The translations under genes and the position numbers were made by a program. From NCBI GenBank assembly GCA_934167875.1, contig CAKPMC010000001.1, positions 13,634-77,633 on the forward strand: a DNA stretch of 64,000 bases, written 5' to 3'. This DNA is from an uncultured Bacilli bacterium. GTDB taxonomy: Bacteria; Bacillota_I; Bacilli_A; RF39; UBA660. This document shows, in pieces, positions 21,571 to 57,042 of the stretch. The stretch's first letter is position 1. The number at the start of each line of letters is the position of its first letter. The notes below the pieces were generated by a model. The model was not told where the DNA came from. It did no database searches and saw nothing but the letters and a program-made list of their open reading frames with translations.

Positions 21571-21795
21571 AAAAAAACTCCTCCTTACATAATAAGGACG
21601 AGCAAACCCGCGGTACCACCTTAATTCATTCAAAAAGAATACCCTCAATTACTTAAATAACGGTAAGTACCGTAACTAGTTACTAAACTCACTAATTATA
21701 CTCCATCGCTACATATTTATATTCATTTACTTATTTTCACCAATCATAAGCTCTCTACAAAAATTCTATAAATACCTCGATTTCATCGCAACAAC
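21571..21795 (-). promoter_or_regulatory. T-box riboswitch leader controlling the HD-gene/valS operon
   Basis: On the minus strand there is an AGAGAG, a GGTGAAAA, an F-box CCGTTA, the T-box AATTAAGGTGGTACCGCG, and a terminator CTCGTCCTT...AAGGAGGAG plus TTTTTTT. Confidence 0.8.
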
Positions 21796-23274: not shown

Positions 23275-24010
23275 ATGGAATTATTAATTTACTACCAATT
23301 TTAATATCATTTAAATCATTATAATTCTGTAATAGTTCTCGTGTTACTTTATATTTATCCATAATAAACTCTAAAGTATCATTTTCTCTAACTATATATA
23401 CATAGTAAGTAGAAAATGTTTCTTCATTAGAAGCAATTGATGAAAAAATTGAACCAACACTAGTAGGAGTAACTACTCCTGTTTCTTTCTTTGTTTCTAC
23501 TACTTTTTGAGCTGGTGTTTCATCATTAACATTTAAATCTTCTTCTATTTCTTTAGCTAATTTTGATAAAGGATTAACTTCATTATCTTTAAATTCTAAT
23601 TTTTCTTTAGTATCATCAACTTCAACAGGAACAGGAATAGCTAAATCTTCAGTATTATCTTCTAGTACCTCTCTTACCATTTGTTTTTCTTCTAAACCTT
23701 CAATATCTATTTCGACATTTATTTTTAAATCTTCTTCATTTATTATTTCAAAATAAAAGTCTCCAACAACAATTTCCATATTATCCAAATCATATTTATC
23801 ATCAATATTTATAACGAAAGGAAGCTTATAGTGAAATTCCTCTTCTATTTGACTAGCATCAGTCATTTTATAACGACCATCTACTAAAATATCGCCACTT
23901 ATCTCATTATCATCTTTTAATTTTAAATTATGTGTAACTTCAATATCAGTTACTTCCGCAATCATAGTTTTAAAAGTAATTGTTTTTGTAAAAGGTACAA
24001 CCTTCTTCAT
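23258..24010 (-). CDS. SpoVID-like spore morphogenetic protein with a C-terminal LysM domain
   Basis: The C-terminal LysM is YVYIVRENDTLEFIMDKYKVTRELLQNYNDLNDIKIGSKLIIP. There is an acidic middle region, and the N-terminal domain is loosely similar to the SpoVID N-domain. Confidence 0.55.
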   Translation of the reverse strand: MKKVVPFTKTITFKTMIAEVTDIEVTHNLKLKDDNEISGDILVDGRYKMTDASQIEEEFHYKLPFVINIDDKYDLDNMEIVVGDFYFEIINEEDLKINVEIDIEGLEEKQMVREVLEDNTEDLAIPVPVEVDDTKEKLEFKDNEVNPLSKLAKEIEEDLNVNDETPAQKVVETKKETGVVTPTSVGSIFSSIASNEETFSTYYVYIVRENDTLEFIMDKYKVTRELLQNYNDLNDIKIGSKLIIPCANNE

Positions 24011-24065: not shown

Positions 24066-24773
24066 CTATCTTTTTTCTATATTAAATTGATATTTTTTAG
24101 TAACCTGAGTTTGAAATTGTTCCTCTATCTTTTCCAAACTAAGCATTGTATCTTTAGCCATTTTTGAATAAGTATGATATTTATTTTTAAACAATTTAGT
24201 TTGTAACAACATACTCAAAGAATAAGCATATGATAAGCAATCACCATTTTCAAAAATTTGAGGGAATTCATTAATGAGCATATTAATAGTTCCCAAACAG
24301 TAAAATGGATTATATATTGATGCATCGGTTAATTGTTGCGTCAAAATCATATCAGCATAATATTTTTCATTATAAAGAAGTTGATATATTCTTTCTAAAT
24401 CATAGCCTGGAAATTTTCTATATGGTAGTTTTCTTATTTCTGCCTGTTTATTTATCCAATTAGCTGTCAATAATAATTTTTGAGAATCTGATAAGTTTTT
24501 ATAAGTATTTATTACTTCCAACATCTCATTTAAATCAGCTATTGTATCCTTTTTATGTACTCCTTCAAATCTTTTAGTATGAACAATAGTAGCAAGTTTT
24601 TCTATTAACTTAGGACTAGTATAAAAGAAATCATCATGTTCAATAACCTGACAAATAATATCACAGTATATCTCAAAATTCTCTTCTAATTTCATACATT
24701 CAAGTAATTCATCACTAGTCATACCAACAAACTGTGCTTTAATCAACAAGTAATCTAATATTTCTTGGGTCAT
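24066..24773 (-). CDS. Hypothetical protein (about 235 aa) downstream of lon
   Basis: The ORF most likely starts at the internal ATG (MTQEIL), which overlaps the lon 3-prime end. Confidence 0.45.
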   Translation of the reverse strand: MTQEILDYLLIKAQFVGMTSDELLECMKLEENFEIYCDIICQVIEHDDFFYTSPKLIEKLATIVHTKRFEGVHKKDTIADLNEMLEVINTYKNLSDSQKLLLTANWINKQAEIRKLPYRKFPGYDLERIYQLLYNEKYYADMILTQQLTDASIYNPFYCLGTINMLINEFPQIFENGDCLSYAYSLSMLLQTKLFKNKYHTYSKMAKDTMLSLEKIEEQFQTQVTKKYQFNIEKR

Positions 24774-27090: not shown

Positions 27091-27190
27091 GCTGTTCGCC
27101 TCCTTAAAATTAATTTTTATTATAACATCTAACAAAAAAAAAGCAACAATTTATACAATTTTTTACATTGGATAATATTGCCACTTTAAA

Positions 27191-41112: not shown

Positions 41113-41785
41113 TTACTCACTTATTACCATTCCATTTTCATCGAATTTGTAGCCACCTGTAACTTGAGGTTCAGGTGTATTATTAACAGTTTCGGTTTCA
41201 TCATTAATTACAGTACCGTTTTCATCAAATTGGTATTGAGGAATATTTGTAGCTGTAGAATTTTCATCAGTACCATCGCTAATAACTACTCCATTTTCAT
41301 CGAATTTATAATTATTTGTAGTATCTTGAGCAGGTGTACTATTAATAACCTCAGTACCATCATCAATCACAGTACCATTTTTATCGAACTTGTACTGAGA
41401 AGTAGTTGAAGTTTCAGAAACATTATCAACGCCATCACTAATAACAACACCATTCTCATCAAACTTATAATTATTTGTATCTTGAGGTGTAGGATTACTA
41501 TTAACAGTTTCAGTTCCATCACTTATTACGAATCCGTTTTCATCAAATTGATACTTAGGAGTACTAGCAGAATTTTCATTAGTTTCAGTACCATCACTAA
41601 TAACTACACCATTTTCATCGAATTTAAAAATATTAGCTTTATCCTGATTTGTAGCTATTTCAGTACTATATTCATTTTTAAAAGGATTAACAGTCTCTAC
41701 AGGTTCATTACTTACCAAATTTTCTTCAAGACTAGTATTTCCATCAAAAACAACAACTCCATTTTCGTCAAATTTTAAATTTGCC
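41113..41785. repeat. Tandem coding repeats of about 80-90 bp (roughly 8-9 units) inside the 41113-42084 gene
   Basis: Repeated DNA units containing TTCATCGAATTT/TTCATCAAATTG and GTACCATC are visible in this span. The spurious plus-strand ORFs 41164-41409 and 41482-41778 arise from it. Confidence 0.7.
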
Positions 41786-42084
41786 ATAAATGCTTTTCGA
41801 TCATAATCTTTATCAGGTTCTTCTATATTTCTATTTAATGCGTTATTAAATACTTCATATTGATCGTTTTTAAAGCCAAGAAAATCAATATTTTCAATTT
41901 GAACATGATTAAAAGAAATTACCTGTGAAGGTAAAAGTAAACCTTCTGGATAAACACATCCCTTATAATCATACATAGTAACATTTCCATTATATTCAAT
42001 AGAAAAATAGCTAATAACCATTATTTTTTTATTATTGCCTTTCAAAGTACACACAGTACCTATAGGTAAATATTTATTATTCAT
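41113..42084 (-). CDS. DUF4176-like N-terminal domain protein with a C-terminal array of about nine tandem FDENG(V/T)VISDGTE repeats
   Basis: The N-terminal 90 aa (LPIGTVCTLKGNNKKIMVISY...YDYKGCVYPEGLL) resemble DUF4176 proteins found in T7SSb loci. The rest is a visible 25-30-aa repeat (YKFDENGVVISDGTE...). Confidence 0.55.
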   Translation of the reverse strand: MNNKYLPIGTVCTLKGNNKKIMVISYFSIEYNGNVTMYDYKGCVYPEGLLLPSQVISFNHVQIENIDFLGFKNDQYEVFNNALNRNIEEPDKDYDRKAFMANLKFDENGVVVFDGNTSLEENLVSNEPVETVNPFKNEYSTEIATNQDKANIFKFDENGVVISDGTETNENSASTPKYQFDENGFVISDGTETVNSNPTPQDTNNYKFDENGVVISDGVDNVSETSTTSQYKFDKNGTVIDDGTEVINSTPAQDTTNNYKFDENGVVISDGTDENSTATNIPQYQFDENGTVINDETETVNNTPEPQVTGGYKFDENGMVISE

Positions 42085-42149
42085 ATCTAACCTCTCTTTA
42101 TTCTTTTACTAAATTATACAAAAAATATTAATATTTTTCAACACATACT

Positions 42150-42458
42150 TTATATTTTACTAACCCTTTTAGTGATTTCAGTTACTGGTAACACACTAGC
42201 ATATTTTTCTAACTCATCTGATGTTTTAGTAATTATATTTATGCTATTAGTTAAATGGTCTTGTTCATCAATAAGACTATTTTTAGCATTACTTAAATCT
42301 GACTTTATTTGAAGTAATTGTGTTTTATATTTGAAATTACCTGGAATAACAGTAGAATCCATAAGATTAAGTGCTGGAGACAAACTACTAATGCTATCTT
42401 TTAGATTAGGAATGATAGTATTTTGAATCTGTTCTGGATTAAATTCTAATTTAGCCAT
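42150..42458 (-). CDS. Small helical T7SS-associated protein (102 aa)
   Basis: Its start overlaps the upstream stop as TAATG. TGAGGTGAAAG precedes the ATG. Predicted all-helical. Confidence 0.45.
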   Translation of the reverse strand: MAKLEFNPEQIQNTIIPNLKDSISSLSPALNLMDSTVIPGNFKYKTQLLQIKSDLSNAKNSLIDEQDHLTNSINIITKTSDELEKYASVLPVTEITKRVSKI

Positions 42459-42745
42459 TATTCTTTCACCTCATTGATTTTCTGTTCCATGGTATCAGCA
42501 TAATCTAATAAGAACTTGCCATAATTATAAATATTACTTTTTATATTTAAATATTGAAGTTTATCTATTTTAGCAGTCTCTGTAAATAAATTAGCACTAG
42601 CACCAACCCATTCACCAGTAGTAACATTCATATTATTTATGCGAGTAAACATTGTAGTAATAATTTCATTCATTTCTTTTGATAATTCTATTATTTCAGT
42701 ACCACATTCTCTTATTTTAGTTGTATCTATATTTATTTGAGTCAT
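42458..42745 (-). CDS. WXG100 family secreted protein (EsxA-like)
   Basis: At about 95 aa it carries the central WXG motif (TGEWVGASANLF) in a helix-turn-helix-sized protein. AAGAGGTG precedes the ATG (MTQINID). Confidence 0.65.
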   Translation of the reverse strand: MTQINIDTTKIRECGTEIIELSKEMNEIITTMFTRINNMNVTTGEWVGASANLFTETAKIDKLQYLNIKSNIYNYGKFLLDYADTMEQKINEVKE

Positions 42746-42801
42746 AAACACCTCTTATTTTAATAAAAGCTAGTAACAATATGTCCTAGCTTTTATTATC
42801 A

Positions 42802-43296
42802 TTATTTAGTTAAACTAACATTTTTCATTTTATTATTACTTGCAGGTTTGCTAGGTTTAGAAACATTAGGTTTACTAACTGAAGGTTGACTAGGTTTAGA
42901 ATTTGAACTAGGTGTAGGATTACTACTAGAAGAAGAATTTTGATTACTAGCAGCTTGCTGTGCAGCTAATCTAGCAGCTTCTTCCTGAGCCCTACGTTCA
43001 GCTTCTAAACGTTGTTCTTCCTGACTAATAGCATTACTTATATTTCTAATCTTAACTTCAATCTCAGGTAAAATCTGATTAGAAATTAAGTTGCGATCAT
43101 TAACAATAATATTTCTACTATTACTAATAACACCATTATCACCACTATTATCATCAATACTAAAGTATGATTCAATATTAGAACAAACTTCCAATGAATC
43201 TTTACTTTTATCTAAATAATTACAAACCTGTGATAATATATTTTTTAAATTAATATATTGATTTCTTTCATTTCTTAAAGCATTTAAATCTGCCAT
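42802..43296 (-). CDS. Hypothetical T7SS-locus protein with a coiled-coil and a Ser/Pro-rich tail
   Basis: The ORF has an AQEEAARLAAQQAA coiled-coil followed by a SSSSSNPTPSSNSKPSQPS low-complexity C-terminus. Confidence 0.4.
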   Translation of the reverse strand: MADLNALRNERNQYINLKNILSQVCNYLDKSKDSLEVCSNIESYFSIDDNSGDNGVISNSRNIIVNDRNLISNQILPEIEVKIRNISNAISQEEQRLEAERRAQEEAARLAAQQAASNQNSSSSSNPTPSSNSKPSQPSVSKPNVSKPSKPASNNKMKNVSLTK

Positions 43297-43313
43297 AATT
43301 TTAACCTAACAAA

Positions 43314-43763
43314 CTACTTATGTTCAGTATATTTTTCTTTTGAATCAACTGCTGATGCCATATTATCATAATTACTTGCAACACGATTAATATTAGTTTG
43401 ATATGCTTCATAAACATATTGTAACTTATCAGAAAAAGCTAATAAGCCACTAACATAAACTGACCAAGCCTTTCTTACGCCTTCAATATATTTTTTTACC
43501 GCTGCTTGTACTTCATCACTTTTAAAAGCACCATCTGCACCAGCTAATGGATCAATAGCATCAATATTAGATGTAACATTGTCAACATATTGTCTAATAG
43601 CATCCCTCATTGCAGGAATTTTATTAGCATTAATACCAACAACACTATAATCACCTTCAATATAGTTACTTTGAAGTTCATTATCCATACCTCTAGTAAC
43701 ATCAAAATTTCTATCTTTTATTTCATTTCCAGCATTAAAAGCTGCTGCTAAACCCCAAGCCAT
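43314..43763 (-). CDS. Hypothetical T7SS-locus protein (149 aa)
   Basis: The ORF has a strong RBS GAGGAGGAAA and no recognised motif. Confidence 0.45.
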   Translation of the reverse strand: MAWGLAAAFNAGNEIKDRNFDVTRGMDNELQSNYIEGDYSVVGINANKIPAMRDAIRQYVDNVTSNIDAIDPLAGADGAFKSDEVQAAVKKYIEGVRKAWSVYVSGLLAFSDKLQYVYEAYQTNINRVASNYDNMASAVDSKEKYTEHK

Positions 43764-43833
43764 ATATTATTTCCTCCTCACTATAAATCATAATACTAAT
43801 ATTTAAAACCAAAAATATTTTTATTTATAAATT

Positions 43834-44160
43834 TTAACCTTCATAATTATCATATACAATAGAATCAATATTAAAGTAATTATTCATAAGTGTTGTAAGT
43901 TCGGTTTCAAAATTTTTCTTTTGAACATCAATGTTTTTTATTATTTGATTAAGATTTTCTTTAAAATCTTTAATGAAATTATCTCTTGAAACACCTTGCC
44001 AACCATCACTTATAACAGATTCCAAATAAGAATAGCCATCAGTAAGATCACGCCCAGTCCTATTAAAAATCTGATCAGATAGATTATCAATATAACTTTG
44101 CATACCAGCTTTAGATACTCCAATACTAAGATCACCTATGCCTAAATCTTCACCATACAT
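43834..44160 (-). CDS. WXG100-like small protein
   Basis: At 108 aa it carries the central SDGWQGVSRDNF motif. TGGGAGATGA precedes the ATG. Confidence 0.55.
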   Translation of the reverse strand: MYGEDLGIGDLSIGVSKAGMQSYIDNLSDQIFNRTGRDLTDGYSYLESVISDGWQGVSRDNFIKDFKENLNQIIKNIDVQKKNFETELTTLMNNYFNIDSIVYDNYEG

Positions 44161-44488
44161 TTTTATTCATCTCCCATTCTCTACTATTTGCTAAAATATT
44201 ATCAGCAATATTTTCAGCACCAACTTTGTAAGATTGCTTTACTTTAACAAAATCACTTGCATAGCTTAAAATATTTTGATTAATAATTTGATAATATTCT
44301 GCCTGCTTTTTAAAATTACTACAAAAGATTTGATTCACTTCTGAATTAAAATAATTTTTAGAATTATCAACCAAAATTTGAAGTTGATTGAAAATATTAT
44401 TTAACTTATCAGCATATTCAATTATATCTGTAGCCATCCTATCTAAGCCAATTTCATTAACACCACTAACATTATACTGTTCATGCAT
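44150..44488 (-). CDS. Small helical T7SS-associated protein (112 aa), first gene behind the internal promoter
   Basis: The ORF follows a TTGACA-18-TAAAAT promoter, and its stop overlaps the next gene. Confidence 0.45.
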   Translation of the reverse strand: MHEQYNVSGVNEIGLDRMATDIIEYADKLNNIFNQLQILVDNSKNYFNSEVNQIFCSNFKKQAEYYQIINQNILSYASDFVKVKQSYKVGAENIADNILANSREWEMNKNVW

Positions 44489-44527
44489 TATACTATCACC
44501 ATACTATCAAACTTCTATCTTACAATT

Positions 44528-44561
44528 AAATTTTACACATTGTTAAACATAATTGTCAATA
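44528..44561 (-). promoter_or_regulatory. Sigma-A-like promoter (TTGACA-18-TAAAAT) driving the WXG100/small-protein cluster
   Basis: On the minus strand there is a perfect -35 TTGACA (44554-44559), an 18-nt spacer and TAAAAT (44530-44535). It lies between the yukD terminator and the 44488 start. Confidence 0.5.
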
Positions 44562-44565
44562 TATA

Positions 44566-44601
44566 AAAGAAAAAAATGTAAAATTTAATTTTTTTTTACA
44601 T
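44566..44601 (-). terminator. Rho-independent terminator after esaB/yukD
   Basis: On the minus strand a hairpin AUGUAAAA-10-nt loop-UUUUACAU is followed by UUUUUUCUUUU. Confidence 0.55.
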
Positions 44602-44608
44602 TTTTCAA

Positions 44609-44863
44609 CTAAAACAAAACTATTTTACTACCATTTCTAATGTTAGTATCCAAAACTGTTGCATCCATATTATAGGCATTTCCTGTACTAACATCATATA
44701 AATTGGTCTTATTACTAACAGTATAAACACCACCAGTTAGTTCACTAACTGCTTTAGAAAGCAAAATAATTACATTTCCAATCTTTCTATTAATAGGAAG
44801 AAAAACATTATAAGATTCTTCTACTTCTGGAACAATCAACTCTACTAATATTTTATTTTTCAT
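44609..44863 (-). CDS. esaB: EsaB/YukD ubiquitin-like T7SS protein
   Basis: An 84-aa beta-grasp-sized protein (KILVELIVPEVEESYNVFLPINRKIGNVIILL...GSKIVLF). AAGGAAGTGG precedes the ATG, which overlaps the essC 3-prime end by 11 nt. Confidence 0.75.
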   Translation of the reverse strand: MKNKILVELIVPEVEESYNVFLPINRKIGNVIILLSKAVSELTGGVYTVSNKTNLYDVSTGNAYNMDATVLDTNIRNGSKIVLF

Positions 44864-47800
44864 TTTGTTCCACTTCCTTTTCAACTACATGTTTAAATAC
44901 TGTATAATTACCATCATTAATAGCAAAACCCATATAAGGGAAATTTATTTTTCTATCATCCATAGTCAAATTAGGAATATTAAATGCTAACTGACTACCA
45001 ACATCCTCACCTAACCAAATACCATATAAAGAATTAATATTAGATTGATACCATACTTCCAATTGAAGATTTTTATAAGAATCATATGTATCTACTAAAA
45101 TAAAATGAATATTAGTAGCATCACCTATATTTTGAAATAAATGATTTAAAATAGCTTGACCATTCTGTGATAGATATTTTCTTAACATACCAATACCTAA
45201 GAAAACATAATAATAATCATTTCCATTATTTTTACTAGATAAAGCTTCATTATGTATTTGAATTACAGCTTGATCAAAATCTTTTTTATAACATTTAATA
45301 TCATTTTCTTTATCATATGCATTAACAAAATCGCAAATAGAAATATTAGCACCAGCTTTTTTGATTAGTTCTATTATACTAATAACAAAACTCATCCTAT
45401 CATAATTCATACTTCTAGTAACTATAGAATTATAGACAGACATAAAATTATAAGTTATAGGTTGCTTAGTAGCTACATTATATCCAATAGGTATTTTATC
45501 TAAGGTATTATTCTGCTCTAATAGATCTAAAGTAACTACTTTAGGAAGTACTGGTATCTTCCTAGCTCTAGAAGTATAAGCATTATTTAATTGTTTTGAA
45601 ACTTCTCTCATAACATTAGTCATATCTTTACGTGGAGCAAAACTAGCTGTTTGAAATTCATAAGCTGTATCATTCATAGCTATCAAACCTCTACCAAAAA
45701 TCTTAGATGGAAATAATCCTCTTGGTGCATCAACTACTGTCCTATATTCAGTCTCATTTGGTATTTGTAAACATAAACGATTAGCAAAGTTTTGTACCAT
45801 TCTACCTCTAACACCATTAGTTGAAATCGCACTAATAATAAATACTATACCGTATTTAACTCCATCTCTATATAAGTTTTGCACAGCTTCAGATAATTTA
45901 GAAAAGTTTTCCACAAAAATTTCATAACTATTAATCATAGTAACGATAAGAGGTAATTTTTTTCCACTGTTTTGTAGATATTCATTATAACTACCTGCAT
46001 AATCTTTAAATAATTCTTTTCTTCTTTCAATTTCTTCATTAATCATTTCAAAGATATCATAAACTAAATCACTGTTTTCAATAGTAGCCACTTCCCCAAC
46101 ATGAGGAATATTATAAAACATCTTCAATGTCTCACTACCACAATCAATTATATACATATTAACTTCATCTGGAGTATGTTCAGCCATCATAGAGAAAATC
46201 ATTGTAGATAATAAATTTTCTTTACCACTACCAGTCTGTCCATATATTAAAGTATTACCTTTATTAGTTAAATCAACATTTAATATTCCTTGTTCCTGAT
46301 TAGAAGGATTATCATATTCACCAATAACTGGATTTATAACATAAGGAACTGGTTTATAATTATATTTCTTTTTCAAGTTAAATAAATTAATATCACTAGG
46401 TAACGCATCAAGCCATAACTTCTTAGTAACAATATTTTCTCTAGTACTTAAATTATAAATATATTTAACTAAGTTAGTTAACTGTTCACCATAATTAGTA
46501 TCATTATTTTCTTTAACCATATCTTTAATTGTTTTAACTGGATAACCAACATCGTTAACGAAATTAATAGAATCATCTACTTTTTTAATAATTCTATCTG
46601 AAGGAACATATTTAGCCCCACTCCATCCAGATTGTCCAATATCAAAATAATCATTATAACCAACTTGTAAATAAAATCTTCCTGTTTCCTTTATACTAGC
46701 TGCTTCTGGTCTTTTTAACATTTCCATACTATCAGATCTATCTTGAACCTTCAAACAAACTTTAAATTTTGAATTACTCCAAATTTGATCATTTACTACT
46801 CCACTAGGTTTTTGGGTAGCAAGTATCAAGTGAAGTCCTAAACTACGTCCAATACGAGCTGTAGAAATTAATTGTTGCATAAACTCTGGTTGCTGACTTT
46901 TTAATTCTGCAAACTCATCACTAATAATAAATAAATGTGCCATAGGTTCACTAACTGCACCCTCACGATATAATTTTTGATACTTATAAATATCAATAGT
47001 ACCTTCACCTAATTTATCTCTAACCTCATTAAATACTCTTTGTCTTCTCTTAAGTTCTGAATCAATAGATACTAAAGTTCTATTCATTTCAGCTGTATCT
47101 AAGTTAGTAATAGTACCAATTAAATGTGGGATTTTAACTCCTGTTTCTTTATTCTCAAAAGCACCAGCTAAACCACCACCCTTATAATCTATCAAAACAA
47201 ACTGTACTTCATAAGGATGATAATTAACTGCAAGAGATAAAATATAAGTAATTATAAATTCACTTTTTCCACTACCAGTCATACCAGCAATTAAACCATG
47301 TGGACCATGAAATTTCTCATGTAAATCAAGTTTAAACTCTTCACCATTAGCATGTACTCCAACTGGAGTAGCTAAAGATACAACTGGATTATTATTTTGC
47401 CAACGAGATAAGATATTTAATTGTTCTATCTTAGATACTTTCATCATTTCTAAGAAAGCTAATGAATTAGGTAATACCGAAATACCATCTTTAGTAACTA
47501 CTGGTATATTAGCTAACTTATTACTTATTTTTCTCATATCTATATCAAGTGCATATTCATTATTAAATTTAATAATTTCTTTTTGATCTTCTTTTTCAGA
47601 TATAATAGTACCATTCTTTTCTGTTATTTCAATAAATGCATCACATTTACCAGGTAAGTTCTTAATCTTATCACCAATACATAAATAAGAAAATCCATAA
47701 TTAGTAGCTGTCTTTAATAATAAATCAATTATAATAGAATTCTTAGCTAAGTTATAATCATCATTAATAACTAAATAGTAAGGACTATTCTTTTTATAAG

Positions 47801-49484
47801 ATTCTTTTTTAGCTACTTCTTCTTCATCAGCAACAGTATTAGTAGAATCTTCTGTTGATTTACTAGAAGCTTTACGTTTTTTATATTCATCCTCTAAATA
47901 ACTAGAAATTTCACTTATTTCATTCAAATTAGTAGCAAAAAATCTTGTTTCTTTATCATCACTAAAACAGTGTGGTAAATACTTAGCATATTCCCATTTA
48001 TCTTTATTAGCATCATTAGTCATAATAACTATTTTTAGATCAATAGAACTATGTAAGCTAACTAACTGTAGTATTAAACTATTAATATATTCTTGTTCAT
48101 GACTATTATTTATAATGAGTCCTGTTACAGGATTATCTAATAATGAAACTGTAATAGGTATATTATTTAAATTCTTTGCTTGTTCACTAATATTATAAAC
48201 CTGATTAAGTAGATCATCTTCATCAAGTGTAAAATGTCTTTCAGGTGCATCAATAACTATTTTAGATAAACAAGTACCACTACCTAAACGTACTGTCAAA
48301 AAATCATAATCTGTTATTAAACGACTCCAAAACTTAATATTAGTTATTTTATTAGAAGTAGTTAACATTTGATAACATTCAATCGCACTTGGATTATTAT
48401 CTTTTAAAGTTTGTTCTTGCTTCTTTTTTATATCCATTATTTGATTTTGCTTTTCTAATATATAACTAGTATATTTAGATACTCTTAATTTTTCTCTTTT
48501 AGCAGCCTGTTTTTTCTGATACTTGGAAGCAATTCTAGGTATAATCAAACTACCAAATATCATAGTAACACACATAACTATTTGTGGAAGTGAAGACATA
48601 AGCGTTTTACTACCGGTAGAAAGTCCATAAATAACCGTATAACCTGTCATTAAAGAAGAAGCAGCCATAGTTATACTAGAACCAATTGACAAAAATAATG
48701 GCATATCTTCTTTTATTTCTGATTGTGGCACAGGTTCTATTTTTACATATTCTTCTTTTAGCTGATCATCCATTCTAAGCGTATGATAAAAATAATCATT
48801 TTCCTGATATAAGTTCAAATTATTATCAGTATCATTAGAAGTTTGGTAATTAGAATTATCGGTATCTCTTTGATATAAATTAAGTTTTTGAACAGCTACT
48901 AATTCATTAGGATTATTAACATTTAAAAAGCTACCCATCCAAATAATTTTTAAACCATTGATAAATATTATATCTCCAATATTTAAAATCTTACTTTTAA
49001 CTAAATTATTATTAACATATATCCTAGAATTATCTTGTAATGAATTTAGTTTCCAACCAGTTTCATTTTCACCAATAGCTTTTACTATTTCAGCATGATT
49101 TGGTTGAATAAAAGAATCTTTATAACAGATTTCATTATCATTACTACTACCTATTCCTATTCTAGAAAGATTATCAAATGATAAATTATAATTATTAGTA
49201 TCTTTAACAGGTAAAGTATATAAAACTATATTTTTTTCTATTCCTTCAATATTTAAAAAATAATATTGATAATCTTTTAATTCAACGCTAAAAATTTTAG
49301 TATCATTTTCAATAATACTAAAAGTATCATTACTTTTTAAAATCCATTTTCCATTCTCTGCTTCTATATTTAATTGAATTTCAAAATTATCATCAATTAC
49401 TTCATTAATAGAAACAGATTCATCTATCTTTTGAGGTAGTTTAAATACCTTTAAAGTTTCCTTACCAAGTAAATATAACTTCAT
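44853..49484 (-). CDS. essC: EssC (FtsK/SpoIIIE-family T7SSb ATPase, 1543 aa)
   Basis: N-terminal FHA-like repeats, TM segments and three P-loop ATPase domains (GMTGSGKSEF, GQTGSGKENLL) are present. TAGGAGTTGG precedes the ATG. Confidence 0.93.
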   Translation of the reverse strand: MKLYLLGKETLKVFKLPQKIDESVSINEVIDDNFEIQLNIEAENGKWILKSNDTFSIIENDTKIFSVELKDYQYYFLNIEGIEKNIVLYTLPVKDTNNYNLSFDNLSRIGIGSSNDNEICYKDSFIQPNHAEIVKAIGENETGWKLNSLQDNSRIYVNNNLVKSKILNIGDIIFINGLKIIWMGSFLNVNNPNELVAVQKLNLYQRDTDNSNYQTSNDTDNNLNLYQENDYFYHTLRMDDQLKEEYVKIEPVPQSEIKEDMPLFLSIGSSITMAASSLMTGYTVIYGLSTGSKTLMSSLPQIVMCVTMIFGSLIIPRIASKYQKKQAAKREKLRVSKYTSYILEKQNQIMDIKKKQEQTLKDNNPSAIECYQMLTTSNKITNIKFWSRLITDYDFLTVRLGSGTCLSKIVIDAPERHFTLDEDDLLNQVYNISEQAKNLNNIPITVSLLDNPVTGLIINNSHEQEYINSLILQLVSLHSSIDLKIVIMTNDANKDKWEYAKYLPHCFSDDKETRFFATNLNEISEISSYLEDEYKKRKASSKSTEDSTNTVADEEEVAKKESYKKNSPYYLVINDDYNLAKNSIIIDLLLKTATNYGFSYLCIGDKIKNLPGKCDAFIEITEKNGTIISEKEDQKEIIKFNNEYALDIDMRKISNKLANIPVVTKDGISVLPNSLAFLEMMKVSKIEQLNILSRWQNNNPVVSLATPVGVHANGEEFKLDLHEKFHGPHGLIAGMTGSGKSEFIITYILSLAVNYHPYEVQFVLIDYKGGGLAGAFENKETGVKIPHLIGTITNLDTAEMNRTLVSIDSELKRRQRVFNEVRDKLGEGTIDIYKYQKLYREGAVSEPMAHLFIISDEFAELKSQQPEFMQQLISTARIGRSLGLHLILATQKPSGVVNDQIWSNSKFKVCLKVQDRSDSMEMLKRPEAASIKETGRFYLQVGYNDYFDIGQSGWSGAKYVPSDRIIKKVDDSINFVNDVGYPVKTIKDMVKENNDTNYGEQLTNLVKYIYNLSTRENIVTKKLWLDALPSDINLFNLKKKYNYKPVPYVINPVIGEYDNPSNQEQGILNVDLTNKGNTLIYGQTGSGKENLLSTMIFSMMAEHTPDEVNMYIIDCGSETLKMFYNIPHVGEVATIENSDLVYDIFEMINEEIERRKELFKDYAGSYNEYLQNSGKKLPLIVTMINSYEIFVENFSKLSEAVQNLYRDGVKYGIVFIISAISTNGVRGRMVQNFANRLCLQIPNETEYRTVVDAPRGLFPSKIFGRGLIAMNDTAYEFQTASFAPRKDMTNVMREVSKQLNNAYTSRARKIPVLPKVVTLDLLEQNNTLDKIPIGYNVATKQPITYNFMSVYNSIVTRSMNYDRMSFVISIIELIKKAGANISICDFVNAYDKENDIKCYKKDFDQAVIQIHNEALSSKNNGNDYYYVFLGIGMLRKYLSQNGQAILNHLFQNIGDATNIHFILVDTYDSYKNLQLEVWYQSNINSLYGIWLGEDVGSQLAFNIPNLTMDDRKINFPYMGFAINDGNYTVFKHVVEKEVEQNEK

Positions 49485-49555
49485 ATTTCCAACTCCTATT
49501 ATTCTATATAAATAATACCAAAAGTTGGAAATGATTTCAATGTCTTTTCCGGATT

Positions 49556-50470
49556 TTACTTAAAAGTTTTAATAGTTTTAATCATATTATCAAAGTTATT
49601 TTTATTCTTTTTATTTTTAAAGATAAATCTAATCTTTTTTAAGTAAACTGTATTAGCTAATACTTCTATAATTGTTACTAAAATTATTAATAATAATTCT
49701 TCTTCTATCTTATTATTTAAACTAGGAATATAAATATTTCCTTCCTCTATGATATTAGCTTCGTATTTATATAAATCAAGCATTAACTTTCTATTTATTA
49801 TTTTTTCCTCTATAGGTTTAATTTTAATATTAGAGTAATATTTAGAAATATCTAAATAATTATCAGTATAATTACCATCCAAGGTAGATATACCATTTTT
49901 AATTATCTTTTGAATATTTTTAAAACTACATCCTAAGTTAGAAGTATGATAATAAATATATGCAAGTTTAATAAAGGTATAATTCATAGGTATATAATCA
50001 TTATCAAAATATAGTTTAGATTTTAAACAAAAAGGACATAAACATAAATTATTTTTATTTACGCTTTTAATCTTATCAACATAAAAAATATTTAAACAAT
50101 GATAACATATAGCTATATTATTAGTATCTAATTTTTCTCTATATGGTAAATTAGTTTTTAAATTTTTTATTTCATCTAACATTTCTATTAAAGAATAATC
50201 ACTACTAGGAAAACTATTATCAGGTATTTCTAAAAGTTTTTCTATAATAATATTTAAATGGTTATTTTTAATATTTTTAGTTGTTACTATTTTATATAAA
50301 ATAATTAATAATTCTTCTTCTAGTAAATTATTTATTTCTTTATTTTTTAATATTTGGTACTGTTTTTCATAATTTTTAGGCATGGTTATAAAATAATGAA
50401 CATCTTTGTATAAGTCATTTATCTGAATAATTTTAAAGTTTTTATATTTTTCTAACCACCAGTATTTCAT
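49556..50470 (-). CDS. Hypothetical protein (304 aa) with a Cys cluster (CYHC...CLCPFC); extremely AT-rich
   Basis: The ORF has RBS CAGAGGTAAAC. Its composition is noticeably more A/T- and Lys/Asn/Ile-rich than its neighbours. Confidence 0.45.
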   Translation of the reverse strand: MKYWWLEKYKNFKIIQINDLYKDVHYFITMPKNYEKQYQILKNKEINNLLEEELLIILYKIVTTKNIKNNHLNIIIEKLLEIPDNSFPSSDYSLIEMLDEIKNLKTNLPYREKLDTNNIAICYHCLNIFYVDKIKSVNKNNLCLCPFCLKSKLYFDNDYIPMNYTFIKLAYIYYHTSNLGCSFKNIQKIIKNGISTLDGNYTDNYLDISKYYSNIKIKPIEEKIINRKLMLDLYKYEANIIEEGNIYIPSLNNKIEEELLLIILVTIIEVLANTVYLKKIRFIFKNKKNKNNFDNMIKTIKTFK

Positions 50471-51462: not shown

Positions 51463-52425
51463 ATGAAAGTATGTATATTAGGAGCAGGAAGTTATGGTTT
51501 AGCACTAGCTCTAGCTTTTTATAAAAATAATAATGATGTAACAGTTTGGACTAAAGTAGAAAGTGAAAAAGAAGAAATAATTAATTATCGTGAAAATAGA
51601 AAAGCTCTACCTGGTGTTTCTATACCAGAAGAGATAAAAATAACTACTAATTTAAATGATAATTATAAATTAATAGTTATAGCTATACCAATTAACTATT
51701 TTAGAAGTGTATGTGAAGAAATTAAAAATAATATTAATAGTGATACTATCTTATGTATCGCATCTAAGGGTATAGAAAAAGATACTAATTTATTCCCACA
51801 CGAAGTTTTAAATTCAATTATCGAAACTAATAATATAGCTATTTTATCAGGACCAACTTTCGCTATTGATTTAGCTAAAAATAGTCCTAGTGGTCTAGTA
51901 TGTGCTAGTACTTCAATTAATATTTATAAAAGTATTAAAAATTGTTTAGAAAGTAACACTTTAAAAATAACTTATACTAATGACTTAATAGGAACTGAAA
52001 TTTGTGGTTCCATAAAAAATGTAATGGCTATCTTATCAGGATTATTAGAAGGAATAAAGATAACTGAGACAACTAAAGCCCTATTTCTAACAGAAGCACT
52101 TAATGAAACTAGTAATTTTATCGAAACCATGAATGGAAATAAAGAAACTAGCTATACACTAGCTGGACTTGGAGATTTAATATTAACATGTACTAGTAAA
52201 AAAAGTAGAAACTATACACTAGGAACACTAATAGCTACTGAAAATAAAAGTAATATTGATAACTATATACTAAATAATACTGTTGAAGGATATTATACTT
52301 TAATAGCTATTAATCAAATAATTAAAAAGAAAGAAATATCAGTACCTTTAGTTGAATTATTATATAAAATTTTATTTGAGGGACTAGATAAAAAAGAAAT
52401 CTTTAACTTATTAATTAAAAATTAA
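51463..52425 (+). CDS. gpsA: NAD(P)H-dependent glycerol-3-phosphate dehydrogenase
   Basis: A Rossmann GxGxxG motif (ILGAGSYGLALALA) and the GpsA C-terminal domain are present. GGAGG precedes the ATG at 51463. It is the only plus-strand gene in the window. Confidence 0.9.
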   Translation: MKVCILGAGSYGLALALAFYKNNNDVTVWTKVESEKEEIINYRENRKALPGVSIPEEIKITTNLNDNYKLIVIAIPINYFRSVCEEIKNNINSDTILCIASKGIEKDTNLFPHEVLNSIIETNNIAILSGPTFAIDLAKNSPSGLVCASTSINIYKSIKNCLESNTLKITYTNDLIGTEICGSIKNVMAILSGLLEGIKITETTKALFLTEALNETSNFIETMNGNKETSYTLAGLGDLILTCTSKKSRNYTLGTLIATENKSNIDNYILNNTVEGYYTLIAINQIIKKKEISVPLVELLYKILFEGLDKKEIFNLLIKN

Positions 52426-52429
52426 AAGA

Positions 52430-52459
52430 CAATGTATAAATAATTACATTGCCTTTTTT
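52430..52459. terminator. Bidirectional rho-independent terminator between convergent gpsA and the 52444 gene
   Basis: On the plus strand CAATGTA-taaataat-TACATTG is followed by CCTTTTTTG. On the minus strand the same hairpin is followed by a U-rich tract. Confidence 0.6.
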
Positions 52460-52780: not shown

Positions 52781-53065
52781 TTATTTATTTGTATTTTGGT
52801 AGTAATTAGTTTCTGCTAATGAAATTGAAAGTTTTTCTAAATCGTCTAGTTCCATATCATAATTTTCATCTAAATATTCTTGGATATCAAAAATCAAACT
52901 ATTTAAATTAGAATAATTACTTACATTAAAATTATATTTATTTAATACCTCAATATCATTATCTGACAAGTAAATATTACCATTATAATGTTTTCTTAAT
53001 GAAGCATAAGGTTTTAAATCAGCAACTAAATCTTCTATACTAACATCAGTATCATTAATTTTCAT
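52781..53065 (-). CDS. Hypothetical acidic protein (94 aa)
   Basis: AAGGAGT precedes the ATG, and the ORF overlaps the upstream stop by 11 nt. Confidence 0.4.
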   Translation of the reverse strand: MKINDTDVSIEDLVADLKPYASLRKHYNGNIYLSDNDIEVLNKYNFNVSNYSNLNSLIFDIQEYLDENYDMELDDLEKLSISLAETNYYQNTNK

Positions 53066-54317
53066 TTTTACTCCTTAATAATTCTGTAACTGCCTTCATA
53101 ACACCAAATTTACCATAAGAATAAGTAAGTCCTCCTTGTTGATAAGCTATATAAGGTTCTCTTAAAGGTCCATCACATGAAAGTTCAATTGAAGATCCTT
53201 GAGTAAAACAACCTGCAGCCATTATTACTTGATCAGTATAACCTGGCATATCCCAAGGATAAGGAATAGCATTTGAATCTATTGGCGAAGCCATTTGAAT
53301 ACCTTGACAATATTTAATTAGTCCTTCTCTATTATGAAAAATGATATTTTGAACAATATCAGCTCTCTTATCACAGTATCTTGGTTCTACTTCATATCCT
53401 AAATCTTCTAAAACTTTACTAGTTAAAACAGCTGTTTTTAAACTAGCTGCTACTACACTAGGAGCAAAAAATAATCCTTGAAGTATTTGCTTATTAATAC
53501 CCAAAGTAGGTCCAACTTCTCTACCTTCTCCAGGACATGTAAGTCGTTCTCCAGCTAATTCAATCAAATCATGTCTACCAGCTATATAAGCACCATTTGG
53601 ACTAATTCCACCACCTAAGTTCTTAATAAGTGATCCAACCATAACATCACAACCAACAATTATTGGTGTTTCTTCGGTAACAAATTCACAATAACAGTTA
53701 TCTACCATAATAATAATATCTTTATCAATACTTTTAATTAACTCTACTACTTTCTTAATTTTATTAATAGTAATACTTTTTCTAGTAGAGTAACCTTTAG
53801 ATCTTTGAATCTCTATTAATTTTACTTTATTAGTACTTATAAAATTCTTTATTTTTTCATAATCAAAATCATCATCTATTAAATCAATTTGTTCATACTT
53901 AACACCAAAAGATTTTAAACTACTATTATTATTAACAATTCCAATAACTTCATGTAAGGTATCATAAGGAACACCACTTATACTAAGCATAATATCACCA
54001 GGTCTCAAATAAGCAAATAAAGCTACTGTCAAGGCATGAGTACCTGATATAAATTGACTACGTACAAGTGCATCTTCGCTACCTAAAACAGAAGCAAAAA
54101 CTTTTTCAATAGTATCTCTTCCTATATCATTATATCCATACCCTGTAGTACTACTAAAATGAACTTCACTTATCTGATATTTATGAAAAGCACTAAGTAC
54201 TCTTAAAGTATTTTTCTCTTCTAATTTATTTATTTCATTGAAAATATTACTTAAACTAGCTTCAGTATCTTCAAACATTTTTAAAACATTACTATCAATA
54301 TCTAATTCTTGTAGCAT
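53055..54317 (-). CDS. YnbB-family PLP-dependent enzyme (aluminium-resistance / methionine gamma-lyase-like)
   Basis: At 420 aa it has the PLP-Lys region (QRSKGYSTRKS) and the GSLIKNLGGGISPNGAYIAG block typical of this family. Confidence 0.6.
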   Translation of the reverse strand: MLQELDIDSNVLKMFEDTEASLSNIFNEINKLEEKNTLRVLSAFHKYQISEVHFSSTTGYGYNDIGRDTIEKVFASVLGSEDALVRSQFISGTHALTVALFAYLRPGDIMLSISGVPYDTLHEVIGIVNNNSSLKSFGVKYEQIDLIDDDFDYEKIKNFISTNKVKLIEIQRSKGYSTRKSITINKIKKVVELIKSIDKDIIIMVDNCYCEFVTEETPIIVGCDVMVGSLIKNLGGGISPNGAYIAGRHDLIELAGERLTCPGEGREVGPTLGINKQILQGLFFAPSVVAASLKTAVLTSKVLEDLGYEVEPRYCDKRADIVQNIIFHNREGLIKYCQGIQMASPIDSNAIPYPWDMPGYTDQVIMAAGCFTQGSSIELSCDGPLREPYIAYQQGGLTYSYGKFGVMKAVTELLRSKNEN

Positions 54318-54775
54318 TTCTTATTACCTCCATTTTGTTTTTGTCTTTTTAATTTTATTTCTTTAAATATTTCACTTAAAGGATTTGAATATTCACAATC
54401 TATATCTTTTTCTATAAGAATTGGAAAACTAGTATTCTTATAAACAAATCCATGAATAGAAAATTTTCTTAATGTATTATACCTAGTTTTAATCCAATTA
54501 TATTGATTATCACTAATATAATTAGGTATAAACATTATAGCTATATTGCCTTCTATATTTATTACCATATTACCAAAATCTACTAATTGAAACGATAAAA
54601 CCTGACTAGGTATACCATCTTCCTTTGAAATACTATAATTATATTTATCAGCAAATTCTCTTAATTTTTGTCCATGATCAATTGAATCTAAAAAACTCTC
54701 TTCATATATACCATCTGGAATAACTAAATCATTTTCATTTGGTATAATTATTATCTGTTTTAAATAACGTTCCAT
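54302..54775 (-). CDS. Unknown-domain protein (one copy of a roughly 150-aa repeat domain)
   Basis: It shares IIPNEN...G.Y.E...HG...F...Y...FLPN..SDNQ..W with both halves of the upstream gene. AGGAGAAG precedes the ATG at 54775, and it overlaps the upstream gene by 41 nt. Confidence 0.5.
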   Translation of the reverse strand: MERYLKQIIIIPNENDLVIPDGIYEESFLDSIDHGQKLREFADKYNYSISKEDGIPSQVLSFQLVDFGNMVINIEGNIAIMFIPNYISDNQYNWIKTRYNTLRKFSIHGFVYKNTSFPILIEKDIDCEYSNPLSEIFKEIKLKRQKQNGGNKKCYKN

Positions 54776-55673
54776 CAACTTCTCCTGCCTTCATTAAAAT
54801 AATATCATATAAGTCTTTTATTAATTTTTCTTTAGAACTGTTATCTTCTAAATAAATGAGTTGGTTTTTATTACCATTAATAATATCAGCTTCTATCATC
54901 GAAAAATTCTTCAAATAATCTTTCTTATCAAATAGCCATCTAAACTGATTATCAGATAGTTTATTAGGTAAAAATAAATATATCTCATCATCTTCTTTAA
55001 TAATAGACATCATTCCCATATTACTAAGACTTTGCCCCCAAAAATAACCACTAACTGTAGTAAGTGATACATTTATATGGTATAACTCACAAAACTCTTT
55101 ATATATTTTACCATGACCTTCTAATATATTACTATCAAATTCTTTTAAATATAAACCATTTTCTATCTTTAAACTATTTTCATTAGGAATAATTAAAGCA
55201 TAAGAATTATTACTAGGAATGTACTTTTCCTTTATTTTTTCATATAAAAGATCAAATGGTGTGTTCTCATATTCATCAACTATTTCTCCTATACTATCCT
55301 GATAAAAAGTACCATCTTCATAAATCAATGATAAAACATGAATTCTTCTATTATAATTTTGGAAACCAGATCTATTTTCTAATAAATATCTATATTGATT
55401 TCTAGTAATTGTTGGTGGAAGATAAATAATTATATCTTCATCTTTTTGTATTACTAAGTGTCCTATCTTAGCAAGTTCAATAAACCAATGAATATCATGA
55501 AAATCACCATCAGTTAAACCTAAGGACTTACAACTTAATCCTAAATTATATTTATTAGAAAATTCATATACTCCTAAGCCATGGGCTTCACTATTAGTAA
55601 GCTCGCGTCGATAAATTCCACTATTTATTTTATTTTCATCAGGAACAATAACAGTTTGTCTTATATTATCCAT
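54735..55673 (-). CDS. Unknown-domain protein (two tandem copies of the same 150-aa domain)
   Basis: There is an internal duplication (VIVPDENKINSGIYRRE... and LIIPNENSLKIENGLYLKE...), each copy ending in a (T/S)xNQ(Y/F)(R/N)(Y/W)L block. Confidence 0.5.
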   Translation of the reverse strand: MDNIRQTVIVPDENKINSGIYRRELTNSEAHGLGVYEFSNKYNLGLSCKSLGLTDGDFHDIHWFIELAKIGHLVIQKDEDIIIYLPPTITRNQYRYLLENRSGFQNYNRRIHVLSLIYEDGTFYQDSIGEIVDEYENTPFDLLYEKIKEKYIPSNNSYALIIPNENSLKIENGLYLKEFDSNILEGHGKIYKEFCELYHINVSLTTVSGYFWGQSLSNMGMMSIIKEDDEIYLFLPNKLSDNQFRWLFDKKDYLKNFSMIEADIINGNKNQLIYLEDNSSKEKLIKDLYDIILMKAGEVDGTLFKTDNNYTK

Positions 55674-55690: not shown

Positions 55691-56434
55691 TTATTTACAA
55701 CCACCATCAACACGAATAATACTACCATTTATATAACTAGCATCACTACTAGCTAAAAATACTATTACTTTAGCTATCTCACTTGGATCAGCAAAACGAT
55801 TCAATATTATTTTTTCTTCTTCTTTTTTTATAAAATTGTAATCAAGTTCTTTATTCATATCAGTTGTAACCCAACCAGGAGCAACAGTATTTACTCTAAT
55901 ATTAGGTGCATACTGTAAAGCAAGATTTTTAGTAAGTGAAATAACTCCAGCCTTTGATGCATCATAATCTAAACTTTCAGGATAAACAGTATCAATACCA
56001 TTAGTAGAAGAAACATTAATAATATTACCTTCCCCATTAGCAAGCATATACTTTCCAACATATTTACTAACTATAAAAGTACCAATCAAGTTAACCTTCA
56101 AAATTTCCATAAAATTATCATAAGTCTTATCATCAAAAGTAGTATCAATAGCTATACCTGCATTATTAACAAGAACATCAATATGTCCAAATACTTCAAT
56201 AACTTGTTCAACCATAGCCTCTACTTCACTTTCATTTGAAACAGAAGCCTTAATTACCAAAGCACTAACATTATACTCTTTTTCTACAAATTCTTTTAAT
56301 TCATTACTATCAGCTTCACTATGACAGTAATTAATAACCACATCATAATTTCTTTTAGCAAACTCTATAATGGTACTTCTACCTATTCCTCTAGCTCCAC
56401 CTGTAACTAGTACTACTTTTCTCTTAGAATCCAT
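55691..56434 (-). CDS. Short-chain dehydrogenase/reductase (FabG-like 3-oxoacyl-ACP reductase)
   Basis: TGGARGIGRS for cofactor binding, NNAG, and the catalytic YDASK are present. AAAGGAGAAA precedes the ATG. Confidence 0.85.
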   Translation of the reverse strand: MDSKRKVVLVTGGARGIGRSTIIEFAKRNYDVVINYCHSEADSNELKEFVEKEYNVSALVIKASVSNESEVEAMVEQVIEVFGHIDVLVNNAGIAIDTTFDDKTYDNFMEILKVNLIGTFIVSKYVGKYMLANGEGNIINVSSTNGIDTVYPESLDYDASKAGVISLTKNLALQYAPNIRVNTVAPGWVTTDMNKELDYNFIKKEEEKIILNRFADPSEIAKVIVFLASSDASYINGSIIRVDGGCK

Positions 56435-56957
56435 ATAAATTTCTCCTTTTTAATGCACCTTTTAATAAAACTTCTTTAGTAGTAAAAAAAGTTGAAGATA
56501 AATAAACTTTTTGTCTAAAGTTTAAAGTATATTTAGATAAATAAATTTTATTTAAAGAAAATTTAACTTTTCTCGTCTTTTTTATATAACCACAAATAAA
56601 CAATTTACATGCAACATTTCTAACACTACATCCTTTATCAGTTAAATATTTACAGTTTTCATGTCTTGTTGTACTGTAACAGCATCCATTTGGATATATA
56701 GGAACATCTTTCTTACACACACATCTTCTTTTTTCACATATACCGTTTTTAAACTTACACAAATTATATTCCTGACATTTATTATCTAGATAATCACATA
56801 GTTCATCATAAAGTCTAGAATACTTTTCATTACGATCTGTTATTTCTAATATCTCTGTTATTTTTTTTATTCTTAATTCTTTTTCTTTTTTAGTTATAGG
56901 TTCATCTTCTATAAATTTTATCGTCTTTCTCAATATTCTTTTATCTCTTCTTTTCAT
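56424..56957 (-). CDS. Cys-rich protein (12 Cys; possibly a YkgJ-type zinc/iron-chelating domain)
   Basis: Paired cysteines (CVCKKD, GCCYS, CKLFICGY) are present. AGAGGTAA precedes the ATG. Confidence 0.45.
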   Translation of the reverse strand: MKRRDKRILRKTIKFIEDEPITKKEKELRIKKITEILEITDRNEKYSRLYDELCDYLDNKCQEYNLCKFKNGICEKRRCVCKKDVPIYPNGCCYSTTRHENCKYLTDKGCSVRNVACKLFICGYIKKTRKVKFSLNKIYLSKYTLNFRQKVYLSSTFFTTKEVLLKGALKRRNLYGF

Positions 56958-57042
56958 AAAAATTACCTCTACTTATTTAACTTATTATATCACATATAGC
57001 TATTTAAAAAAAGAAAAGTGTTTCTATAAAGAAACACTCTAA

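Follow-up and report, generated by a model that had tools for sequence, protein, structure and literature searches.

Two adjacent open reading frames (ORFs) on the minus strand of a 64,000-nucleotide (nt) stretch of DNA from an uncultured Bacilli bacterium of the RF39 lineage (contig CAKPMC010000001.1 of assembly GCA_934167875.1, positions 13,634 to 77,633; hereafter, the window) overlap by 41 nt and together encode three copies of one domain, two in the first ORF (ORF1) and one in the second (ORF2). This arrangement raises the question whether the two ORFs are a genuine overlapping pair or the pieces of one three-domain gene disrupted by a frameshift and, further, what the domain, denoted X here, might do. 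An initial annotation of the sequence left the first question undecided and, with regard to the second, pointed out that such arrays near a type VII secretion system (T7SS) are typical of immunity-protein islands. The best overall explanation, to which we assign a probability of roughly 0.6, is that ORF1 and ORF2 are two real, coupled genes encoding a previously undescribed domain of RF39 bacteria that resides in housekeeping operons and acts as a binding module produced together with the enzyme encoded downstream.

Each of the two ORFs is a real gene, and the two are translationally coupled. The initial annotation correctly located the pair, the overlap and the ribosome-binding site inside the upstream gene: the overlap spans positions 54735-54775, the stop codon of ORF1 included, and a Shine-Dalgarno sequence, AGGAG, precedes the ATG of ORF2 by 6 nt. 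In the program-made list, ORF2 starts from a TTG (54302-54778); the codon after this TTG is the ATG at 54775, which yields a product of 157 amino acids (aa). The start cannot be moved downstream because the first strand, which is conserved family-wide (IIIPNE), begins at residue 8, with no intervening start codon. Among the loci of relatives (designated by L numbers), the AGGAG is also present in L098 and is lost in L001 through a deletion. In the AlphaFold2 (AF2) model of ORF1 (predicted local distance difference test score, pLDDT, of 83), two like domains are followed by residues 299-312, which are encoded in the overlap and modeled with pLDDT <50, the final helix comprising residues 281-295. 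The length of the overlap thus comes from ORF1 reading on beyond its last helix, across the ribosome-binding site and the first 13 codons of ORF2, as a 14-residue tail; this tail being predicted to be disordered, the overlap is probably tolerated rather than functional for ORF1, and no dual coding of two folded segments would be involved. L001, L098 and L099 all retain this tail.

The three copies of X (A and B in ORF1, C in ORF2) are paralogs that originated by tandem duplication, one of the duplications having turned into a fusion (ORF1). BLASTP aligns ORF2 with both halves of ORF1 (E-values of 3e-14 and 2e-12; 29-34% identity), and the three-way alignment of the copies, at 29-30% identity, contains 23 invariant columns, including P-x-E-N, H-G and P...N-Q. 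In the AF2 model, the secondary-structure elements of copy A extend from E5 to H150 (pLDDT about 90). The presence of three copies had been recognized from the outset; the motifs require some correction in that the C-terminal block is (F/Y)(L/I)Pxxx(T/S)xNQ, with three rather than two residues between P and T/S, the third copy has FIP rather than FLP, and the second copy begins with LIIPNEN. A fourth copy, located more than 30 kb away in the window (Table 1), had been overlooked.

The alternative interpretation, namely, that a single three-domain gene was split by a frameshift, be it a sequencing or assembly error, a recent pseudogenization or programmed frameshifting, draws on the collinearity of the three domains in two overlapping frames, on the fact that a 1-nt indel within a segment of about 15 nt (54776-54790) could join ORF1 and ORF2, and on the existence of frameshifted X copies elsewhere, such as the single X gene of the closest GTDB species that is split in this manner (L020, 5501-5991). 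However, the same two products recur across dozens of independent assemblies: by exact-sequence look-up, the clusters at 90% identity that contain ORF1 and ORF2 comprise 54 and 31 distinct sequences, respectively; the full-length members listed all consist of 312 aa and 157 aa and come from many independent assemblies of the species, with contigs of up to 213 kb (one such member is NCBI MCI5967586.1, 'hypothetical protein [Tenericutes bacterium]'). Two independent metagenome contigs from the same species, L001 and L098, share the junction and the 41-nt overlap with the window, and the sequence at the junction contains no homopolymer or slippery run. Both ORFs, of which ORF2 has its own AGGAG and ATG, are subject to purifying selection, with synonymous changes predominating: the ratio of nonsynonymous to synonymous substitution rates (dN/dS) between the window and L001/L098 is 0-0.17 for ORF2 and 0.10 for ORF1, and reaches 0.33 for ORF1 in the comparison with a species at 67% identity. 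Furthermore, the two-domain protein is a conserved unit in its own right (304-312 aa, down to 45% identity), and the single-domain gene is placed variably: it stands ahead of the two-domain gene in L002 and L003, is missing in L004, where the two-domain gene runs directly into the YnbB-like gene, and in the species at 67% identity (L099, 945-1060) is cut to a 36-codon remnant (MEHYFKQVMIISNENNL...) directly before the YnbB-like gene. There is no three-domain homolog among the 262 family proteins. The recurrence in dozens of assemblies, the identical junction, the dN/dS values and the variable gene order jointly bear out the genuine overlapping pair, and refute the split gene, which we consider exceedingly improbable.

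X is an undescribed, acidic alpha/beta domain of 150 aa found only in uncultured gut Bacilli of the RF39 type. The profile derived from the three copies retrieves 179 representatives at E <= 1e-3 among 1.84 billion proteins, most of them single-domain proteins of 140-170 aa; the metagenome-assembled genomes of these relatives are labeled as uncultured Bacilli, Tenericutes or Mollicutes, Candidatus Coprovivens, Candidatus Aphodocola and Clostridium sp. CAG:594, and GTDB assigns both Candidatus genera to the order RF39 (PMC8035907). No match was detected by tblastn in phage and plasmid collections. The original description of the domain as uncharacterised holds: there is no consistent family match in Pfam, NCBIfam, PHROGs or PADLOC for the proteins of the window and 60 family members (with Pfam searched at E <= 1), and no relative was found in the PDB by sequence or by fold. 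Nor are the homologs single-domain housekeeping enzymes of known function; they are uncharacterized proteins that reside within housekeeping operons. Two candidate assignments were rejected. The NCBIfam model 'alt_ValS' matches ORF1 with an E-value of 0.083, and hhalign detects no relation of the X profile to the valyl-tRNA synthetase (ValRS) of the window (probability of 0.03%); for the reading of P(D/N)E as the signature of a PD-(D/E)xK nuclease, the sole support is Foldseek matches to influenza PA-N, with probability <= 0.14.

The X proteins are small, acidic (isoelectric point of 4.9-6.1) and cytoplasmic. Across 341 instances of the domain in the 262 proteins, 77 of which contain two domains, four positions are nearly invariant (in the ORF2 numbering, Gln91 and Pro84, 98% each, and His34 and Gly68, 89% each), and, of the instances that extend over the region after strand 1, 88% contain the P-N/D-E motif there. 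In the AF2 model of ORF2 (pLDDT of 90; predicted template modeling score of 0.85), with the element order b-b-a-a-b-b-a-b-b-a, the conserved polar residues map to the C-termini of strands and the N-termini of helices. This placement suggests a single functional site.

X genes characteristically sit right in front of a gene for a conserved enzyme, usually overlapping it; this enzyme is either a YnbB-type pyridoxal phosphate (PLP)-dependent lyase, as is the case for ORF1 and ORF2, or, behind a T-box leader, ValRS. The pair is internal to a probable operon that encodes, in this order, a Cys-rich protein, a FabG-like short-chain dehydrogenase (SDR), the two-domain and single-domain X proteins, the YnbB-type lyase and a 94-aa protein (Table 1). 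One terminator-like hairpin (57015-57040) lies just upstream of the first gene, and another (52424-52457) ends the unit, after a small gene that follows the 94-aa one. The Cys-rich protein, with the pattern CGF..C..R...NGCCYS...C..L...GC...C..F.C, overlaps the SDR gene by 11 nt and is kept upstream of it in part of the relatives (for example, L008, 6182-6778); ORF2 overlaps the YnbB-like gene by 16 nt. An X gene occupies the position between the SDR and YnbB-like genes in about 17 lineages besides that of the window, frequently with start/stop overlaps. The loci with this arrangement are L001-L010, L014-L020, L029, L056, L058, L061, L071, L091, L098 and L099, with two separate copies in L008; one lineage departs from this pattern, with X between ArsC-family and PNPOx-like genes.

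Members of the X family are optional, evolve fast and vary in number. Among 59 loci of GTDB species in which the SDR gene lies upstream of the YnbB-like gene, the two abut in 43, so that X is evidently optional for this pair, nine carry a single X, and seven carry other cargo. In the latter (L030, L040, L041, L046, L052, L076 and L087), the inserts encode Bro-N and KilA-N domains, a small membrane ORF and unknown ORFs, which makes the SDR|YnbB junction a recurrent insertion site. The number of X copies per locus varies from 0 to 3, and some copies are decayed. For the same pairs of genomes, the median pairwise identity is 32% for X, 58% for the SDR and 72% for the YnbB-like enzyme, and in two close pairs the respective values are 73/91/96 and 70/82/89. 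A deletion in L001 (5042-5767) removes 71 aa of ORF1 in frame, taking the C-terminal half of copy B together with the Shine-Dalgarno sequence of ORF2; it is bounded by two 11-nt near-repeats, AGAAG(A/T)TGATG, and could reflect either natural variation or a collapse in the assembly.

The fourth copy in the window (X_D) belongs to the other arrangement and lies between an HD-domain gene and valS, overlapping the former by 8 nt and the latter by 7 nt, in an operon that starts with a T-box leader (Table 1). The HD ORF in the program-made list (20818-21648, with a TTG start) overlaps the T-box; translation probably begins instead at the ATG at 21570, 21 nt beyond the T-box. Profile-profile comparison with hhalign (probability of 99.8%) shows that the X_D type and the other X subfamily are homologous. 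The valS-linked subfamily is the largest branch of X, with 103 clusters, and includes single-domain forms of 145-153 aa, forms of about 220 aa and two-domain forms of about 280 aa; two-domain fusions thus appear to have arisen separately in two subfamilies. The arrangement T-box-(HD)-X-valS is found in the window, in L100-L105 and in L106-L108, with Rfam T-boxes above the gathering score before X-valS in L100 and L103 and before HD-X-valS in the window and L106-L108 (99-116 bits in the five relatives). In two distant lineages, where X is only 33-36% identical to the copy in the window, it likewise lies directly upstream of valS, with an 11-nt overlap, and the neighborhoods upstream of X differ, with an ABC transporter in one lineage and glycosyltransferases in the other. 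L108 has two tandem X genes before valS; in L106, a BspA-type leucine-rich repeat (LRR) gene, located between X and valS, and a 102-aa ORF are additionally present.

Given the position of the T-box, uncharged tRNA-Val should induce X_D-type proteins along with ValRS. For the window and L100, the cmscan alignments can be read as GUA followed by G at the 3' end of the specifier loop, a sequence consistent with valine; the assignment is uncertain because the same letters align in a second T-box of L103 that precedes another class I synthetase. The second T-box (L103, 6325-6539) comes right after valS; the synthetase that follows it consists of 803 aa with a weak match to the leucyl-tRNA synthetase editing domain, and GGUAG occupies the same position in a MAFFT alignment. 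To our knowledge, no T-box-controlled valS operon with a conserved protein-coding gene between the leader and the synthetase has been described, and a literature search on the link between T-box, valS and RF39 returned nothing relevant and no such operon.

Some further observations concern the surroundings of valS. The segment at about 17865-20402, which comprises valS, shows 96-97% DNA identity to L106 and L108, and the segment 20407-23454 (T-box, HD, X, YsxE-like and SpoVID-like genes) only 72%; this sharp break at the X|valS boundary suggests a recent replacement or transfer of valS alone. Downstream of valS, the genes are unrelated, with HtpG in the window and a prepilin-like gene in L106 and L108. 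Upstream, the window encodes a SpoVID-like protein (LysM and SPOCS domains), a 306-aa ORF and Lon (22354-24010 and 24739-27135, both on the minus strand), and relatives have YunB and SpoIID. We take the 306-aa ORF, which has no family match, to be YsxE-like, and the gene order resembles the lon ... spoVID-ysxE-valS order of Bacillus subtilis. These genes suggest that the RF39-like lineage of the window carries sporulation genes.

The proposal that X belongs to an immunity-protein island fares less well than the gene pair. The window does contain a T7SS-like island (41113-50470) that encodes an EssC-like protein, a DUF4176-DUF6980 protein and seven small unknown ORFs and is inserted between the gene for a zinc-ribbon membrane protein and feoB; the EssC-like and DUF4176 genes lie 5-13 kb from ORF1/ORF2. 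The claim of proximity thus stands as a matter of distance only, given that five backbone genes separate the pair from the island (the YnbB-like gene, two small genes, gpsA on the opposite strand and the gene for the zinc-ribbon membrane protein). Under the immunity hypothesis, the X copies would be orphan immunity genes that neutralize the toxins of neighboring bacteria and were duplicated and diversified in an arms race. X does have traits of such genes: the proteins are small, acidic and cytoplasmic, form tandem paralogs of variable number, some of them decayed, and evolve about twice as fast as the neighbor genes; there is an EssC-like gene 5 kb away in the window, and EssC is also present in L020 (the only two cases within the flanks examined), and the same slot takes other accessory cargo. 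However, no LXG, WXG or other toxin gene adjoins X in any of about 22 lineage-level contexts, in which the neighbors are SDR and YnbB, T-box and valS, or the ArsC-family and PNPOx-like genes, so the immunity reading comes down to generic traits: small, acidic, tandem and fast-evolving.

Additional comparisons point the same way. L014, L015 and L017 share the backbone (YnbB...gpsA, zinc-ribbon...feoAB); X occupies the same SDR|YnbB slot in L014-L017, and the interval that holds the island in the window contains there, instead of a T7SS, NT5C and small ORFs (7697-9300 in L014), which indicates that the T7SS-like island is a replaceable insertion. None of the ORFs of the island matches the X profile, and no described immunity family (DUF600/EsaG, Imm or SUKH/SMI1_KNR4) was found in ORF1, ORF2 and the 60 members, for which Pfam (E <= 1), PADLOC and NCBIfam searches all came out empty. 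Unlike immunity genes, members of the largest subfamily have a fixed place between a T-box leader and valS, and the near-invariant polar residues among members that are only 20-25% identical suggest one conserved target. X is not part of the T7SS island, and, with no adjoining toxin, the slot filled where the corresponding interval holds no T7SS and the largest subfamily tied to T-box and valS, an immunity function appears very unlikely.

Table 1. Genes, X copies and regulatory elements of the window discussed in the text
Feature	Coordinates	Strand	Description
ORF1	54735-55673	minus	312 aa, ATG start; two X copies
ORF1, copy A (aa 1-153)	55215-55673	minus	long-loop type; VIVPDEN...AHG...GHLVIQ...YLPPTITRNQY; hidden Markov model (HMM) E 4e-37
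ORF1, copy B (aa 154-298)	54780-55214	minus	LIIPNEN...GHG...FLPNKLSDNQF; HMM E 4e-30; AF2 elements E157-H295
ORF1, C-terminal tail (aa 299-312) and TGA stop	54735-54779	minus	VDGTLFKTDNNYTK; predicted disordered, pLDDT <50
Shine-Dalgarno sequence of ORF2	54782-54786	minus	AGGAG inside ORF1; 6-nt spacer to the ATG at 54775
ORF2, copy C	54302-54775	minus	157 aa; HMM E 2e-39; AF2 pLDDT 90; dN/dS 0-0.17
Cys-rich protein	56424-56957	minus	177 aa; first in the probable operon; Pfam and NCBIfam give no match
FabG-like SDR	55691-56434	minus	Pfam adh_short_C2, E 3.7e-59; conserved upstream neighbor
YnbB-type PLP enzyme	53055-54317	minus	Pfam Met_gamma_lyase PF06838, E 4.8e-170; conserved downstream neighbor
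94-aa gene	52781-53065	minus	overlaps the YnbB-like gene at its end; retained in near relatives
T-box leader of the HD-X_D-valS operon	21591-21795	minus	Rfam RF00230; 108 bits (gathering score 93)
HD-domain gene	20818-21570	minus	between the T-box and X_D
X_D, fourth X copy	20373-20825	minus	150 aa from the ATG at MNDRG (20825); HMM E 2e-25 over 20373-20867
valS	17842-20379	minus	845 aa; Pfam tRNA-synt_1, Anticodon_1, Val_tRNA-synt_C; directly downstream of X_D
EssC-like gene	44853-49484		FHA and FtsK/SpoIIIE domains

The flux at both junctions bears on another alternative, in which X has no functional tie to its neighbors and persists as neutral or selfish cargo wherever the junctions before essential, well-expressed genes tolerate insertion and guarantee expression. 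This scenario would account for the absence of X from 43 of the 59 SDR-YnbB junctions, for the unrelated cargo, including Bro-N and KilA-N, in seven others, for the additional BspA-type LRR gene between X and valS in L106, for the fluctuating copy number and decay of X, and for the break in nucleotide identity to L106/L108, 72% as opposed to 96-97%, that coincides precisely with the X|valS boundary of the window. On the other side, X has no matches in phages, plasmids or PHROGs, is accompanied neither by flanking repeats nor by recombinase genes, and is inserted seamlessly, with start and stop overlaps. Furthermore, the X-valS pairing is maintained across species in which X is only 33-36% identical and the upstream genes differ, which speaks for retention by selection, and the dN/dS values are well below 1. 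Taken together, these features make the cargo scenario unlikely.

Returning to the binding module, the following mechanism can be tentatively proposed as a possibility that falls clearly short of even odds. X would be a small cytoplasmic module with one conserved site, formed by His34, Pro84 and Gln91 along with the P-N/D-E and G-H motifs, the elements of which would lie at strand ends and helix starts. It might work as a dimer or, in the fused two-domain forms, as a pseudo-dimer, would be produced together with the downstream enzyme, and could act either as an accessory or regulatory partner of that enzyme or as a binder of its amino-acid-related ligands. Such a module would be dispensable and fast-evolving: in most relatives, nothing separates the SDR and YnbB-like genes, and decayed copies are common. 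A broader conjecture, which we regard as rather improbable, is that X represents a new kind of accessory factor for amino acid handling in the reduced genomes of RF39. Its ancestral form would have been a tRNA-Val-responsive partner of ValRS that might have functioned as a cofactor, a trans-acting quality-control factor or a valine-binding protein, with duplicates redeployed upstream of the YnbB-type lyase, in three domains in the case of the window.

Several considerations weigh against a functional tie to the downstream enzyme. The physical link is deduced from gene order and overlaps alone, and overlaps are common across this compact genome, for instance, between the Cys-rich protein and SDR genes and between the YnbB-like and 94-aa genes. 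ValRS and a PLP lyase are unrelated enzymes, for which a common kind of partner protein is not obviously to be expected. The presence of Bro-N and KilA-N in the same slot, and of the LRR gene in L106, indicates that these slots may be permissive insertion sites and X unrelated cargo.

RF39 bacteria are common, uncultured, small-genome members of the gut communities of animals and humans, and the X family, which has hundreds of members, is maintained between T-box and valS and has undergone repeated duplication ahead of a conserved PLP enzyme, is an expressible target in the search for lineage-specific helpers of core metabolism. For annotation, the gains are a seed alignment for a new domain family, the recognition that the 41-nt overlap is real rather than an error, the removal of a false T7SS-immunity label, and the flagging of the SDR|YnbB and X|valS junctions as sites of gene flux. 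The architecture as such, with tandem paralogs, fusion and coupling, is ordinary; the novelty lies in an undescribed domain without a solved relative. What emerges is a new orphan family and a corrected interpretation rather than a new mechanism, and the placement of X between T-box and valS provides a specific, testable lead.

Among known systems, the closest in fold is the ADF-H/gelsolin-like alpha/beta sandwich (cofilin, coactosin and the gelsolin domains), the top match of both AF2 models, which share with it a central sheet and flanking helices over ~80 residues; no significant structural match to this fold spans the whole X domain. The immunity proteins of polymorphic-toxin systems, that is, the EsaG/YezG (DUF600, PF04634) arrays of T7SSb and the Imm and SUKH families, resemble X in being cytoplasmic, acidic proteins of about 150 aa that form rapidly diverging tandem paralogs of variable copy number, and the window adds a T7SS locus within 5 kb. 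X differs from them in that it lacks sequence matches and adjoining toxins, occupies SDR-YnbB and T-box-valS operons even where no T7SS is nearby, and retains near-invariant polar residues across the entire family. With the T-box-controlled aminoacyl-tRNA synthetase operons of Firmicutes (for a general description, see PMC2494555), X_D and its subfamily share the position between a bona fide T-box leader and valS, whereas the three copies in ORF1 and ORF2 are not located behind a T-box. As a gene pair, ORF1 and ORF2 conform to the translationally coupled overlapping pairs of compact bacterial genomes, with a Shine-Dalgarno sequence inside the upstream gene and both genes conserved under purifying selection, and the neighboring genes of their operon also overlap, by 11 and 16 nt; the difference is that such overlaps typically span 1 or 4 nt, compared to 41 nt here, an extension that the predicted disordered read-through tail of ORF1 would explain.

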